Notes under the pieces: model-generated
What the model was told of the DNA's origin: nothing
The model's input: the letters and a program-made list of their open reading frames with translations, nothing else
Databases searched by the model: none
Shown: positions 6,777-46,744 of the stretch, one piece after another
How the letters are laid out: each line of letters starts with the position of its first letter
Numbering within the stretch: position 1 is the first letter of the stretch
IMG/VR virus record: IMGVR_UViG_3300042013_000045
Location: 96,001-160,000 of that record
Origin: a virus
Reading direction: 5' to 3' (one strand)
Length of the DNA: 64,000 nucleotides
Program-made: the position numbers and the translations under genes

Positions 6777-8063
6777 TTACTTGGCTTCGGTTTCAGCTAC
6801 AGCAGCTGGAACTTCGACCACTTCTTTTTCTTTCGACTGATTGACAATGAACTCCGCCATGTCCAACAGTTTCTTCTGGTCATCAGACATAACCGGAGCA
6901 CTACTACCCATCATGGTGCGGAACATGCTTGGCATATGCAGGTCCATCATCATGTTACGTTCGCTTGGGGTCTCGGACTTATCTTTGGTCAGCGCAGGGT
7001 CGTGGAAGCGATTGTTAACAGTCGCCTGCACAGTGCTACGCCATTCTTCCCGTGCCAACAGAATCAAATCGCCTTCCAATACGAACTGGCGCTCGACACC
7101 GAGGAAGGTTTCTTCGAGAACTTGGTTGCGAGCCTCGCCGTCGAAGTCGACCTTGTAGATCGGCTCTGGATCGGTTTCGGTCTTCAGTTCGAGGGAGAAC
7201 TTGCGACCTGGTGATGGTACCAGCTTGATGTAGCCGTAGAACGGTTCGCCTTTGTAGATGACCTTGCTTGGGGTCAGGTGCGGATAGACCGCAGGCGGGC
7301 AGTTCAGGATCTCGATCCGGCGGTTGAATTCCAGGTAGTTCCCGGCTTCAGCGGCGATCGGCATCAGGAAGCGCAGCATGTCGAACGTCACCGTGTTGGA
7401 ATGCACGTAGGCGTTGAGCATTTGAGCCATTTCATTGTCCAGGCCGTGGTCGTCCATCATTTCGATGATGGCCAGCGGGTCGAGGGCTTTGAAGTCGATG
7501 CGGAACAGGAAACGACCAGGGCGGTCGATCATGTACTTGTCGAGTTCCTTCTTGCTGTTGCTGGTGACGATGAACATCACCTTCTTGAACGAGGAGTCCG
7601 AGAAGTAGGTCAGCAGGTCACGACGTTCTTTGGCAGGATAGATCTTGCCGAACTCGTCGAAGTAGACGATGCAAGAACCCATCATGGTGGTGGCTCGCGC
7701 CAGTACCGATGGAGAGATAGCACGGTCAACCAACAGCACTGGCATGTACTTGGCCAGACCTTCGTTGCAGATGTCTTCGGCCAGAGCCGATTTACCTGCA
7801 CCCTTGATACCGCGCAGCAGGACACCCACGGAACCTTCTTGTTTATTGAAGGCTGCCATGATTTCTGCTTTGTTAGCGTTGTGCTTGCCGTAGAACTTTG
7901 CAGCCACGTCAAACTTCGGACGATCCGGTACCAGGAACAGATCGTTGGTCAACGGGTGTTCGCGCAGACGGTACACCATCGGTGGGACATGGTCGGTCAC
8001 ATTAGCGTCGCTGACGTGACGGATTACGATGGTGCCATCTTCGTTGAACAGTTTAGTAGACAT
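6777..8063 (-). CDS. AAA+ ATPase
   Basis: Walker A GIKGAGKS, Walker B VYFDEF, second region of homology DRPGRF. Confidence 0.9.
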   Translation of the reverse strand: MSTKLFNEDGTIVIRHVSDANVTDHVPPMVYRLREHPLTNDLFLVPDRPKFDVAAKFYGKHNANKAEIMAAFNKQEGSVGVLLRGIKGAGKSALAEDICNEGLAKYMPVLLVDRAISPSVLARATTMMGSCIVYFDEFGKIYPAKERRDLLTYFSDSSFKKVMFIVTSNSKKELDKYMIDRPGRFLFRIDFKALDPLAIIEMMDDHGLDNEMAQMLNAYVHSNTVTFDMLRFLMPIAAEAGNYLEFNRRIEILNCPPAVYPHLTPSKVIYKGEPFYGYIKLVPSPGRKFSLELKTETDPEPIYKVDFDGEARNQVLEETFLGVERQFVLEGDLILLAREEWRSTVQATVNNRFHDPALTKDKSETPSERNMMMDLHMPSMFRTMMGSSAPVMSDDQKKLLDMAEFIVNQSKEKEVVEVPAAVAETEAK

Positions 8064-43804: not shown

Positions 43805-43881
43805 TGGCTCCATGACCAGGATTCGAACCTGGGACAAACGCGTTAACAGCGCGCTACTCTACCGGACTGAGTTATCATGGA
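43805..43881 (-). tRNA. tRNA-Asn (GUU)
   Basis: Full cloverleaf, anticodon loop CU-GUU-AA, T-loop UUCGAAU, encoded CCA. Confidence 0.95.
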
Positions 43882-43892
43882 ATTGAATGGTG

Positions 43893-44129
43893 TTACGCTG
43901 CGACTGGTGTGTACCAAGGCAGCGTATGGTCAAGCATCATGGGAATGTAAGCGCGTTCACGATTGGTACGTTCAGACCAGTAGTTACCATCCCGGCAACG
44001 TTCCATCGAGATCGAGTACACTTTACCATCCTCAAACTTGAACCACGAAGGGCCGAAGCCGTCCGTTCCATCGGTGTAGTGTGTTGCTCCAACAGGAGCC
44101 TTGATGCACTGGTACTCTGCTGGCAACAT
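43893..44129 (-). CDS. Small hypothetical protein (AP.GATHY motif)
   Basis: APVGATHY motif seen in small phage proteins. Confidence 0.55.
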   Translation of the reverse strand: MLPAEYQCIKAPVGATHYTDGTDGFGPSWFKFEDGKVYSISMERCRDGNYWSERTNRERAYIPMMLDHTLPWYTPVAA

Positions 44130-44154
44130 GGTGCTTTACCGATGGTTGTTGAAA

Positions 44155-44568
44155 TGGTGCCCACTGCCGGGATTTACCCAGGACCAACATGCTCCGCTCC
44201 ACTAGACCTGCACACAATGGCTGTCAAGGGTGGCGCTGTCGTTTTCAACGGACATGGAAAGCCGTCCAGCAATACGACCGGCATTAACCCTAAGGCATGG
44301 CACAGTCGTACTCCCGGACATTCGGGTGCTCGACCACTACGCTCCAGTCATGTCGTCCCCGTCGGGGATCTGTCACGTCGTAGCAGCCGAACATTAAAAG
44401 GCTCTCTACCAGCCAAGCACCTTTACTTGCTACGAGAGCAAGGAGGGATACGAGCACTAGCAGAGTAGCAGTAGAAGAAATGTGCATCCGTCTTACTATC
44501 GGAAGCTCAGAGGTCTGTTTCCAGACACGAGAGCCCGCGCCAGCAGCTTTCACTGCCACTCCCCACAA
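44155..44568 (-). ncRNA. Candidate ACCA-terminated structured RNA
   Basis: Many hairpins (GGCAGUGAAAGCUGCU, GUCUGGAAACAGAC, UCCCCGACGGGGA); ends GGGCACCA-UUUC. Confidence 0.5.
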
Positions 44569-44757
44569 TTGAATGTATCCCCTAGGTCACGTTCTTTCTG
44601 AGGCAGAACTCGAATCTGCAATGAGTCACGCTCTGATGCCCGAAGGCCGCACGCTCCTCTCACCAACGGACAGGCAGCCACAATGGACTAAGGTTTCCAC
44701 TTTAAGAGGCTTCAACCAAGGGTATACCAGTTCCCCCACTCGTAGGGACACATTCAA
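44569..44757 (-). ncRNA. tRNA-like RNA with long closing stem
   Basis: ~15 bp terminal stem, D-arm GGG-GAACUGGUAUA-CCC, T-arm GCAGA-UUCGAGU-UCUGC, expanded centre. Confidence 0.6.
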
Positions 44758-44765
44758 AATGAAGC

Positions 44766-44951
44766 TTATCGTTCGTAAACGATGGTGAAGCTCGAGCGAC
44801 CAGCGGTCACGATACGGCCAACGAGTTCTTCGTCAGTGTAGGACTGTTTGGGACTGGAGGCTGAGACAGGGTCAAAGCCGAGATGCTTGAAGTCAGCGCC
44901 ATTCAGGACTTTGCCAGTATCAGCAACACGCTTAACAGCTTCAACGTTCAT
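44766..44951 (-). CDS. Small hypothetical protein
   Basis: AAGGAG RBS. Confidence 0.55.
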   Translation of the reverse strand: MNVEAVKRVADTGKVLNGADFKHLGFDPVSASSPKQSYTDEELVGRIVTAGRSSFTIVYER

Positions 44952-44969
44952 CGGAGACTCCTTAGGAAA

Positions 44970-45081
44970 TGGTAGTGCCGCCTGGAGTCGAACCAGGGAC
45001 TTCTTTCTGATGGTGAGCGGCTAGCTCCACTCGAGGTGGAGCCGCTCGGGGAAAGGTCTCTACCAACTGAGATACGGCACT
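44970..45081 (-). ncRNA. tRNA-like RNA with 36-nt hairpin insertion in the anticodon loop
   Basis: Perfect acceptor, D, anticodon and T stems and encoded ACCA; 43-nt anticodon loop region. Confidence 0.8.
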
Positions 45082-45102
45082 GATCAAGCATGTTGCAGGA
45101 AA

Positions 45103-45180
45103 TGGAAGGGGTGACTGGATTCGAACCAGTGATCGCGGGATCAAAACCCGCTGCCTTGGGCCGGACTAGGCGACACCCCA
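45103..45180 (-). tRNA. tRNA-Gln (UUG)
   Basis: Cloverleaf, GCGGG-UU-UUG-AU-CCCGC, encoded CCA. Confidence 0.93.
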
Positions 45181-45188
45181 ATTAAAGC

Positions 45189-45337
45189 GTTAGAAGAAGC
45201 GGACGAGCGAGATTCAAACTCGCGGATGGATAACTATAGCCCCATGGCAGGCAGCCTCCACTCTAGCTCATGTATCGATCGGCGCTACCCGATATATCAA
45301 CGTTCAACCACTCCGTCACCGAACGCTTCTTCTGAAC
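45189..45337 (-). ncRNA. tRNA-like RNA with long closing stem
   Basis: AGAAGAAGCG/CGCUUCUUCU stem, D-arm ACG-GAGUGGUUGAA-CGU, T-arm GCGAG-UUUGAAU-CUCGC. Confidence 0.65.
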
Positions 45338-45339
45338 AA

Positions 45340-45426
45340 GGCCCCGAGGGATGGATTCGAACCATCGACCTGCACCTGGAGGAATTACCTCGCAGACATC
45401 GCTCTAACCAACTGAGCTACCCAGGG
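45340..45426 (-). ncRNA. tRNA-like RNA with extended non-canonical anticodon arm
   Basis: Canonical D-arm GCUC-AGUUGGUUA-GAGC and T-arm GAUGG-UUCGAAU-CCAUC; 28-nt anticodon arm with 5-nt loop. Confidence 0.7.
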
Positions 45427-45631
45427 GATCACGCTGTGAAAACGTACGCAAGAAGATGCTCTCAGCTATCGTCCAGATCGTCCCAGTGGGAGCGTCCTTA
45501 GTAGGTGTGAGGTTAGTGTACACGACCATCGGCCATGAACAGTCCTGAGCATGTCTTGCGATATGAAGCACCTTGAACTCAAGACCACTAGGAGACTTGT
45601 AGGTCTCATGTTGCTCAATGGTCTCAAGCAT
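45404..45631 (-). CDS. DUF1653-like small protein
   Basis: YK..SG..FKVL.IA.H......MVVY.....W......F motif; 3' end overlaps tRNA-like RNA. Confidence 0.6.
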   Translation of the reverse strand: MLETIEQHETYKSPSGLEFKVLHIARHAQDCSWPMVVYTNLTPTKDAPTGTIWTIAESIFLRTFSQRDPLGSSVG

Positions 45632-45645
45632 GATGCTTTCCTAAT

Positions 45646-45733
45646 TGGTGGAGAGAGAAGGATTCGAACCTTCGAAGTGCGGTCGCACATCAGATTTACA
45701 GTCTGGTCCCTTTGGCCACTCGGGAACCTCTCC
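45646..45733 (-). tRNA. tRNA-Tyr (GUA)
   Basis: Cloverleaf with long variable arm, CU-GUA-AA, encoded CCA. Confidence 0.95.
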
Positions 45734-45740
45734 GGGAAAT

Positions 45741-45853
45741 TGGTGGTCAGTACCGGGCTCTTAACCGGCTGCTTCATCTTTCGATTAAACTGCCCCGACT
45801 CGTAAGCAGCGAAGGTTCTTCCAGTCAATGGGCGAAACGCCCGATCGGCTGTA
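45741..45853 (-). ncRNA. Candidate ACCA-terminated small RNA
   Basis: Hairpins plus GCCGG-8nt-CCGGU-ACUGACC-A-CCA 3' end. Confidence 0.5.
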
Positions 45854-45855
45854 GG

Positions 45856-45932
45856 TGGCGGGCCAAGCAGGATTCGAACCTACGACATCTGGTTTTGGAG
45901 ACCAGCGCTCTGCCAGACTGAGCTATAGACCC
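45856..45932 (-). tRNA. tRNA-Trp (CCA)
   Basis: Cloverleaf, CU-CCA-AA, encoded CCA. Confidence 0.93.
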
Positions 45933-45943
45933 TGAAGCAGTGA

Positions 45944-46618
45944 TCACTCGTGAGTGGTAGACAACTCACTAATGATGCACACCGAGCCGTCTTCATCAGA
46001 GGTTGAGTCTGTGTAGTCGACTTGGTTGTAGATGCCACCATGGAACTGGAGGATCTGGTCTTTCCACGAACTGTCCAAACGAAGCGCAGGGCACGTAGAC
46101 TTACGTCCTTGGCACAGCGCATTGACAGATACGGAACCAGCCGCAGTTACATGAACACTGATCTTGAACGGAACACCCAAGGGTACGTTTTCCAGTATGG
46201 TACTGTTAACGATCGCAGGGTCAGCGAAACTGGCTCGGAAGCCAATGGTCAGCTTACCCTTGTTCCAGAACACTTTCAGCGGTGGTGTGTTAGCGTTTTT
46301 AACATGCACTTGAGCAACCACAACCTTGGAGGCTGAGTTGACCTTTACCAGTGTCATCTCTTGACGACTCCAGTGATGGAGAGCGCTAGACAATGGCCAG
46401 TACTCGACTTCCTTCCATTCTGTGCGAGTGCGATGAACGCTCTTGCTCGATGCACCCTTAGTAGGAGCGGTGAATTGAACGGAACCGTCTTCAAGCTGAA
46501 CAACGCAACTCGGGCAGTTAGCCAGTGCGTAGTCACCCATGACCTCCAATGCAACTGGATTGGTCAGCGAAACGGGAAGCGGAGTAGCTATTTTGTACTG
46601 CGAAATATCAACGAACAT
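45944..46618 (-). CDS. Polysaccharide lyase family 7 (alginate lyase)
   Basis: PL7 motifs RTEWKE, QVH, QFHGGIYNQ. Confidence 0.8.
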   Translation of the reverse strand: MFVDISQYKIATPLPVSLTNPVALEVMGDYALANCPSCVVQLEDGSVQFTAPTKGASSKSVHRTRTEWKEVEYWPLSSALHHWSRQEMTLVKVNSASKVVVAQVHVKNANTPPLKVFWNKGKLTIGFRASFADPAIVNSTILENVPLGVPFKISVHVTAAGSVSVNALCQGRKSTCPALRLDSSWKDQILQFHGGIYNQVDYTDSTSDEDGSVCIISELSTTHE

Positions 46619-46667
46619 GTTCAGTCTCTCAGCGTGGGTGCATAAGATGACGAACAGTTCTAGAATG

Positions 46668-46744
46668 TGGCGCCTCGTACCGGACTCGAACCGGTGACCC
46701 CTAGCGTGACAGGCTAGTACTCTAACCAACTGAGCTAACGAAGC
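46668..46744 (-). tRNA. tRNA-Asp (GUC)
   Basis: Cloverleaf, CU-GUC-AC, encoded CCA. Confidence 0.95.

Follow-up and report, generated by a model that had tools for sequence, protein, structure and literature searches.

A phage tRNA cluster encodes a complete tRNA cloverleaf with a hairpin and a CAU strand in its anticodon loop, most likely a non-decoding tRNA look-alike

The tRNA cluster of a phage represented by a 172.8-kb IMG/VR record (G000), estimated to be 65% complete, encodes a 112-nt RNA that forms a complete tRNA cloverleaf and whose anticodon loop has been rebuilt: a linker of 2-3 nt, CC(C), leads into a bulged hairpin of 10-12 bp, and this is followed by ACCAUYW, a conserved strand of 7 nt. 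The window, meaning the whole 64,000-nt stretch of DNA that was analyzed, covers bases 96001-160000 of that record, and the element occupies 44970-45081 of the window on the minus strand, with its 5' end at 45081. The element most likely acts as a stable tRNA look-alike, not as a decoding tRNA. In the form we consider probable, it is a non-decoding, tRNA-scaffolded stable RNA of Ile/Met(CAU)-type origin that displays its hairpin and CAU strand to a putative partner. The body, which has its acceptor, D, and T arms, carries A73, and ends in a gene-encoded CCA, is complete and, to judge by comparison with a divergent copy, is selectively maintained. Coordinates of the parts are collected in Table 1.

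Table 1. Parts of the tRNA-shaped RNA gene and the repeats that flank it (positions in the window).
Feature	Position	Strand	Remarks
Whole tRNA-shaped RNA gene	44970..45081	-	112 nt; encoded CCA at 44972-44970
Acceptor stem, 5' strand AGUGCCG	45075..45081	-	Partner 44974-44980; 3/7 pairs changed on both sides vs L003, 0 broken
D arm UCUC-AGUUGGUA-GAGA, with unusual U10-A25 pair	45057..45072	-	C26 next (45056); D stem identical in L003
Anticodon stem, 5' strand CUUUC	45051..45055	-	Partner GAAAG 45003-45007; 2/5 pairs changed on both sides vs L003
5' linker CCC	45048..45050	-	CC in L003
33-nt bulged hairpin	45015..45047	-	6 bp, 4-nt 3' bulge CUAG, 6 bp, loop CUCGA
7-nt single strand ACCAUCA	45008..45014	-	CAU at positions 3-5, anticodon-loop register; C33, pyrimidine 37
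T arm CCUGG-UUCGACU-CCAGG	44981..44997	-	Direct reading and pair comparison with L003
Acceptor stem, 3' strand CGGCACU, discriminator A73, and encoded CCA	44970..44980	-	
First copy of direct repeat CCAUUUCCU	45097..45105	-	CCA end and trailer of tRNA-Gln; cassette boundary
Second copy of CCAUUUCCU	44964..44972	-	CCA end and trailer of the element; just ahead of the ribosome-binding site of the 61-aa ORF

Direct reading of the minus strand gives the parts of a tRNA body: a 7-bp acceptor stem, a D arm, a T arm with a T-loop, and the residues of the tertiary pairs (U8, A14, G15-C48, G18 G19, and U54 U55 C56), with U8 A9 between the acceptor stem and the D arm and a variable loop of AAGUC. The anticodon loop departs from the tRNA norm of seven nucleotides with U33 and a purine at position 37. 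It is 43 nt long, consisting of CCC, the 33-nt hairpin (GAGCGG CUCCAC CUCGA GUGGAG CUAG CCGCUC), and ACCAUCA, and it has C33 and C37; among 553 tRNAs from the fetched loci, 92% have U33 and 95% have a purine at 37, and U10, which the element has as well, occurs in just 15. The cloverleaf-plus-hairpin structure is computed at -41.5 kcal/mol, against an unconstrained minimum of -43.5, and the fold of the whole RNA scores z = -3.25 relative to shuffles. The hairpin sequence occurs once in G000, and a repeated or mobile palindrome is thereby ruled out. An earlier sequence-only reading had described a near-perfect tRNA body here, with a 36-nt hairpin in a 43-nt anticodon loop. The body and the sequence of the loop are borne out by the minus-strand reading, the body also by its fold energy and by the cloverleaf scan described below; the hairpin is indeed in the loop, and the figure of 36 nt is the sum of CCC and a hairpin of 33. 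As that reading also said, taking out the 36 nt leaves CAU in the anticodon position between C33 and C37, and C33 with a pyrimidine at 37 recurs in the divergent copy.

ARAGORN with default settings does not call the element, and the Rfam tRNA model RF00005 gives no match to it even at E<=10. In its intron mode, ARAGORN reports a tRNA-Ser(cga) with a 36-nt intron, but the body is class I and its variable loop has 5 nt, which rules out a bacterial tRNA-Ser; the assignment reflects mechanical placement of an anticodon. A strict cloverleaf scan demanded 7/7 pairs in the acceptor stem, 4/4 in the D stem with GG in its loop, 5/5 in the anticodon stem, and 5/5 in the T stem with the T-loop consensus. 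The real 172.8-kb genome yielded three matches, the element among them, and 30 shuffled genomes yielded none. The cloverleaf is far beyond chance. A coding region was considered and rejected as well, the overlapping ORFs (77, 60, and 58 aa) being ones that also span tRNA-Gln; those of 77 and 58 aa that overlap the element have no match in Pfam.

Three copies of the element were found in all. In L233, a Logan soil contig whose PL7 polysaccharide lyase is 92% identical to that of the window phage, the gene is the same except for one extra base in the hairpin loop. The third copy, at 6896-6998 of the IMG/VR contig L003 (PL7 83% identical), is divergent. Of the 21 body pairs, 7 differ on both sides between the window and L003 and none is broken, making all 14 changed stem nucleotides compensatory; paired cells amount to 100% in this comparison, versus 38-50% in a control with the partners slid. 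The minimum-energy fold of the L003 copy is a cloverleaf plus CC, a bulged hairpin, and ACCAUUU. Its hairpin is 25 nt long and different in sequence, with a 1-nt 3' bulge, a UUCG loop, and 10 bp where the window has 12. Kept across the divergence are the architecture, the first two hairpin pairs (G-C and A-U), the CC(Y) linker, the 7-nt ACCAUYW strand, the rare U10-A25 pair, and C26; conservation of the hairpin and of ACCAU thus comes from one divergent comparison, two of the three copies being nearly identical. Because the body pairs in L003 changed on both sides and none was broken, the element appears not to be a decaying gene, and the pattern reads as a signature of structural selection. 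Alignment of the orthologs, which had been proposed as a check on the sequence-only reading, finds that L003 and L233 do not hold ordinary tRNAs at this gene and that both keep the insert.

Distribution of the element is narrow. A covariance model built on the window and L003 versions (R1) was applied to 22 records of related phages, of which seven have terminal repeats and are complete, and to 11 Logan, ENA, and JGI contigs, and it returned copies in L003 and L233 only. The cassette is missing from L232, the closest relative by PL7 identity (93%), and from about 20 other related records, and is for that reason dispensable; across the records compared, the element is apparently an accessory cassette. 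In a BLAST search of 50,697 phage records, the only matches to the element were generic T-arm ones. Exact and degenerate D-arm patterns, searched across IMG/VR, returned the L003 contig and one chance match in coding sequence. Two JGI metagenome scans yielded no ortholog: the first was empty, and the second, with tRNA-Gln as bait, led to L229 and L230, which have other tRNA bodies and from which the element is absent. A scan of GTDB genomes produced 61 matches, nearly all of them ordinary tRNAs with a chance match downstream and none an ortholog.

The element belongs to a minus-strand cluster that also holds tRNA-Asp, Trp, Tyr, Gln, and Asn, small ORFs, and several other folded RNAs. It is encoded between tRNA-Gln (45103-45180) and tRNA-Asn (43805-43881), all on the minus strand, with a 61-aa ORF (44766-44951, same strand) as its other neighbor and a terminator-like hairpin downstream of tRNA-Asn. 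The PL7 gene in the cluster, together with several of the tRNAs, links the phage to Pseudomonas-type jumbo phages such as Psa21, and close PL7 homologs are carried by Pseudomonas genomes as well. The source is a soil jumbo phage related to Pseudomonas phage Psa21, at least by its PL7 lyase gene. The repeat CCAUUUCCU is the CCA end and trailer common to the tRNAs of the cluster. In L232, the 61-aa ORF directly follows tRNA-Gln and everything between the two copies of the repeat is missing, so that the window, relative to L232, has a spacer and the element inserted between them. From this absence, these phages seem to acquire and shed tRNA modules through recombination at the common CCA-plus-trailer sequence. 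The site in L232 that matches the exchange at window positions 44964-44972 / 45097-45105 is at 7195-7230. Cluster content varies even between phages whose PL7 sequences are more than 90% identical. The ordinary tRNAs, at 43805-46744 of the window and in related loci, have mostly GUN anticodons (Asn, Asp, and Tyr, with His in relatives), accompanied by Gln and Trp. GUN anticodons are the queuosine set targeted by colicin E5-type nucleases, and their dominance is a possible clue to the host attack against which the cluster is directed.

A working scheme for the element as a non-decoding RNA can be put together from its parts. The intact body would let host RNase P and 3'-end enzymes excise it from a polycistronic transcript and would keep the excised 112-nt RNA stable, by analogy with engineered tRNA scaffolds and with the annotation of RNA1 and RNA2 of phage T5. 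A 43-nt loop with neither U33 nor a purine at 37 should not support decoding, and since the loop cannot decode, the element probably works by being bound. We infer that it presents the hairpin and the CAU strand to a protein that normally handles tRNA, the likely contact site being the conserved single strand ACCAUYW and the base of the hairpin. Candidate partners are an enzyme that reads CAU (MetRS, TilS, or IleRS) or a host anticodon nuclease, and binding by either kind would make the element a decoy or sponge. The in-register CAU and the encoded CCA would also suit a tRNA that matures in some way. Phage tRNA clusters are generally interpreted as supplies that serve codon usage or counter host defenses. 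The element, its operon neighbors, and many IMG/VR examples suggest that such clusters also carry tRNA-shaped RNAs unable to decode. With an intact body, one hairpin, and one conserved CAU 7-mer, this small, clean case may offer a tractable handle on what RNAs of the kind bind, be it a synthetase, a modification enzyme, or an anticodon-nuclease defense.

Within a kind of RNA known since T4 and T5, whose tRNA-like RNAs are still without explanation, the element makes up a small new family. RNA1, RNA2, and RNA3 of T5 are annotated as "tRNA-like stable RNA with unknown functions" (GenBank AY543070). They, too, are encoded among tRNA genes on the same strand, and their folds retain an acceptor-like stem and a T arm, with the anticodon arm replaced or enlarged by non-tRNA hairpins, as in the element. 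They differ in having no sequence similarity to it, and the body of T5 RNA1 is of class II (Leu-like) and its insert is much larger; the element has a full class-I body, a CCA in the gene, and a CAU strand in register. Phage T4 makes small stable RNAs from its tRNA region, RNAC and RNAD (species 1 and 2), whose role is unknown (PMC3014915). T4 RNAC ends in a T-arm-like CCGGG-UUCGAAU-CCCGG, and like the element it comes from a tRNA cluster; the fold we obtained for it is no full cloverleaf, with no clear D arm or 7-bp acceptor stem, and its sequence is unrelated.

Two other natural comparisons and one artificial one bear on the architecture. The "enigmatic introns" of Lak megaphage tRNAs interrupt the anticodon region and are conserved from sample to sample (Devoto et al. 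2019, PMC6784885). One Lak insert is itself tRNA-like, as are inserts in L005, L006, and L011, relatives of the window phage. Lak tRNAs, unlike the element, occur in alleles with and without the insert and are predicted to have an ordinary anticodon once it is removed. The YrlA RNAs (RF02553) are non-decoding RNAs with a tRNA-like module recognized by tRNA enzymes (Chen et al. 2014, PMC4201824) and provide a working model for a protein-binding tRNA mimic; a YrlA RNA ends in a Ro-binding stem and its "acceptor" is closed by a loop, whereas the element ends in a normal acceptor stem with CCA. In engineered tRNA scaffolds, the anticodon arm is replaced for expression of recombinant RNA in E. coli (Ponchon and Dardel; PMC3753655), a design that rests on recognition by E. 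coli cellular factors and protects the embedded RNA (PMC3753655). Scaffold and element share one architecture, with the acceptor, D, and T arms kept and a hairpin-closed insert replacing the anticodon stem-loop. The scaffold is artificial, and it accounts for stability, not for a biological role.

The CAU strand and the body together hint at an origin of the element from an Ile/Met(CAU)-type phage tRNA. CAU at positions 3-5 of the 7-nt strand is in anticodon register, and A1-U72, G2-C71, and A73 are common to the element, the tRNA-Ile(GAU) and tRNA-Met(CAU) of the clade, and a tRNA of L003 with an 8-nt anticodon loop. These features make it plausible that CC(C) and the hairpin were inserted between positions 31 and 32 of such a tRNA. 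The slot directly after tRNA-Gln is held by tRNA-Ile(GAU) in L003 and L229 and by the element in the window. Body identity to Ile/Met(CAU)-type tRNAs is 0.67-0.70, as compared to 0.62-0.68 for Asp and Asn tRNAs, values so close that the ancestry stays an inference. The Met/Ile2-type assignment in the sequence-only reading accordingly stands as regards the shared A1-U72, G2-C71, A73, and in-register CAU, and not as regards overall identity, which barely separates that type from other tRNAs. Initiator tRNA identity was rejected on inspection, the anticodon stem having no G-C triplet and the D stem no A11-U24. The 8-nt-loop tRNA, at 6734-6811 of L003, adjoins the ortholog of the element there; its anticodon loop, CCGCAUAC, has CAU and no U33, and it is possibly a paralog or a four-base decoder.

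Like intron-bearing pre-tRNAs (archaeal and eukaryal with a bulge-helix-bulge, bacterial with a group I intron), the element has extra RNA inside its anticodon loop, and a reading that we retain as unlikely makes it such a precursor, of a tRNA(CAU) of Met or Ile2 type. A protein endonuclease would remove CC(C) and the hairpin (36 nt) and the halves would be ligated, by host RtcB or by an unrecognized phage enzyme, leaving a loop of ACCAUCA or an 8-nt loop, CC-N-CAU-NN. The 7-nt strand with CAU in anticodon register adjoins the 3' strand of the anticodon stem, and A73, A1-U72, and G2-C71 agree with tRNA-Ile(GAU), tRNA-Met(CAU), and the 8-nt-loop CAU tRNA of L003. RtcB is encoded by more distant relatives, G006 and Psa21 (beside its tRNA cluster), and unexplained "introns" are reported in Lak megaphage tRNAs (PMC6784885). 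However, in both lineages the product loop would carry C33 together with a pyrimidine at 37 and not the canonical residual loop of spliced pre-tRNAs, the insert position, 31/32, is non-canonical, and no insert-free allele was found, the cassette being either present with its insert or wholly absent. A bulge-helix-bulge, defined by a 3-nt bulge, 4 bp, and a second 3-nt bulge, is absent: the window has 3 nt opposite 7, then 6 bp and a 4-nt bulge, and the fold of L003 has bulges of 2 and 1 nt set 7 bp apart. A group I intron or ribozyme has no support either, Rfam giving no Intron_gpI or ribozyme match and the insert of 33-36 nt being too short for a group I intron (about 200 nt or more, with a P1-P9 core).

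Genes for a splicing pathway were sought in the same phages. EndA is not found in G000 (65% complete), and neither RtcB nor Rnl2 is found in G000, in G001 (27% complete), in G002, or in G003, a complete relative that has other tRNA bodies with inserts; genes for a TilS-type or CCA enzyme are likewise missing from the records searched. The host may supply RtcB or another ligase. Absences from the incomplete G000 and G001 are weak evidence and a host ligase is possible, and splicing is for these reasons kept as an unlikely reading, not dismissed. The sequence-only reading, which had correctly judged the insert too short for group I and free of a bulge-helix-bulge, left the choice between a protein-spliced mini-intron and an unspliced mimic. 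The unspliced mimic is now favored, with both orthologs keeping the insert on a body held by compensatory changes, and the mini-intron is disfavored by C33 and pyrimidine 37, the lack of a bulge-helix-bulge or an insert-free allele, and the search for RtcB and Rnl2, prompted by its suggestion to look for such ligases, which came back empty in G000, G001, G002, and G003, as did that for EndA in G000. In its full form, with a genuine tRNA(CAU) precursor from which proteins remove a 36-nt insert at 31/32 to yield a decoding tRNA whose loop has C33 and a pyrimidine at 37, the precursor reading strikes us as quite unlikely. Enzymes of tRNA end processing might in that case recognize the minihelix formed by the hairpin and ACCA, after which a ligase would join the halves. 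If true, it would mean a protein-dependent (non-self-splicing) tRNA intron in a bacterial virus and, with splicing of the element, a previously unrecognized tRNA-intron pathway in bacteria.

That the element is a passenger, selfish or without function, is rather improbable; it would be a tRNA gene knocked out by the insertion and kept in circulation by cassette recombination at the conserved CCAUUU trailers. Its patchy presence among very close relatives, the CCAUUUCCU repeats that flank the cassette, and the total of only three copies would suit a passenger. Against this stand the 14 of 14 changed stem nucleotides that are compensatory in L003 with no pair disrupted, the retention of U10-A25, C26, CC(Y), and ACCAU across that divergence, and the fact that the hairpin is not a repeat in the genome.

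Highly doubtful is a processing module, in which the hairpin and ACCA mimic an acceptor minihelix with its 3' end and in which RNase P and 3'-end nucleases cut the loop, releasing as the active species a minihelix of about 37-40 nt, a nicked two-piece tRNA body, or both. ACCAU(UU) right after the hairpin does correspond in both lineages to the 3' end and trailer of the cluster tRNAs, and the window hairpin has 12 bp. The hairpins are bulged, however, that of L003 has only 10 bp, neither has a T-loop, cleavage in the loop is only predicted, and the other insert-bearing bodies of the clade have no such ACCA.

Other classes were rejected more simply. A YrlA or Y RNA is contradicted by the score for RF02553 (16.7 bits, against a gathering threshold of 69, in a match that overlaps the element only partly), by the lack of a Ro60/TROVE gene in G000, and by RNA ends that form an acceptor stem with CCA. 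ARAGORN -m finds no tmRNA in G000, the D arm is complete, and pair 3-70 is U-A in the element and C-G in L003 instead of the Ala-type G3-U70 of tmRNA. A kink-turn at the CCC/GA junction was dismissed on inspection, there being 7 extra nucleotides on the non-bulged strand.

Several tRNA bodies of this phage group have been rebuilt, the element among them. ARAGORN and Rfam call a tRNA-Arg(gcg) at 45340-45426 of the window (minus strand), a neighbor of the element that is probably a further mimic lacking an anticodon: the 28 nt of its anticodon arm fold into a sealed rod of 10-11 bp with a UAAUU pentaloop, and it has no encoded CCA. Its homologs have a continuous 11-bp helix with UAACU in L232 (7036-7121) and a rod of about 17 bp in L004 (888-986). 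Two further minus-strand RNAs, at 45189-45337 and 44569-44757, flank the neighborhood of the element; in both, long terminal stems replace the 7-bp acceptor stem and there is a T-arm-like hairpin, for example GCGAG-UUUGAAU-CUCGC at 45207-45223. By the ORF list, the region at 44140-44560 holds no minus-strand ORF longer than 92 aa.

More elaborate forms occur in relatives. At 5683-5830 of L005, 5683-5854 of L006, and 2551-2725 of L011, a circularly permuted tRNA, in the order T arm, loop-closed acceptor, and D arm, is nested in the anticodon loop of another, complete tRNA body; the two anticodon stems abut. The same three contigs (L005 6017-6139, L006 6448-6569, L011 2912-3034) and L229 (1282-1403) encode tRNA bodies with a two-hairpin insert in the anticodon loop, one hairpin being T-loop-like (e.g. 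ACGG-UUCGACU-CCGU) and the second a cUUCGg hairpin. T5 RNA2 has a similar internal hairpin, CUCG-UUCGAUU-CGAG.

Class-I bodies in which 36-66 nt separate the D-arm stem from the T-arm stem were sought across IMG/VR; more than 100 are among the matches listed, which include many Tyr and Ile introns of giant viruses and several recurrent phage insert families. Rfam, applied to L111, L117, L130, L160, L186, L198, and L222, reports only tRNA with a large insertion. In one recurrent insert type of phage tRNA bodies, a hairpin precedes the conserved motif ACAGCAA and the D and T arms lie 61-66 nt apart; it is found in L111, L117, L134, L140, L164, L170, L186, L191, L201, L216, L217, and L222, and also in L247, a Hungatella MAG. 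The second recurrent type, with GGUGAAGGRCCAAA, is found in L130, L160, L162, L198, L215, and L225.
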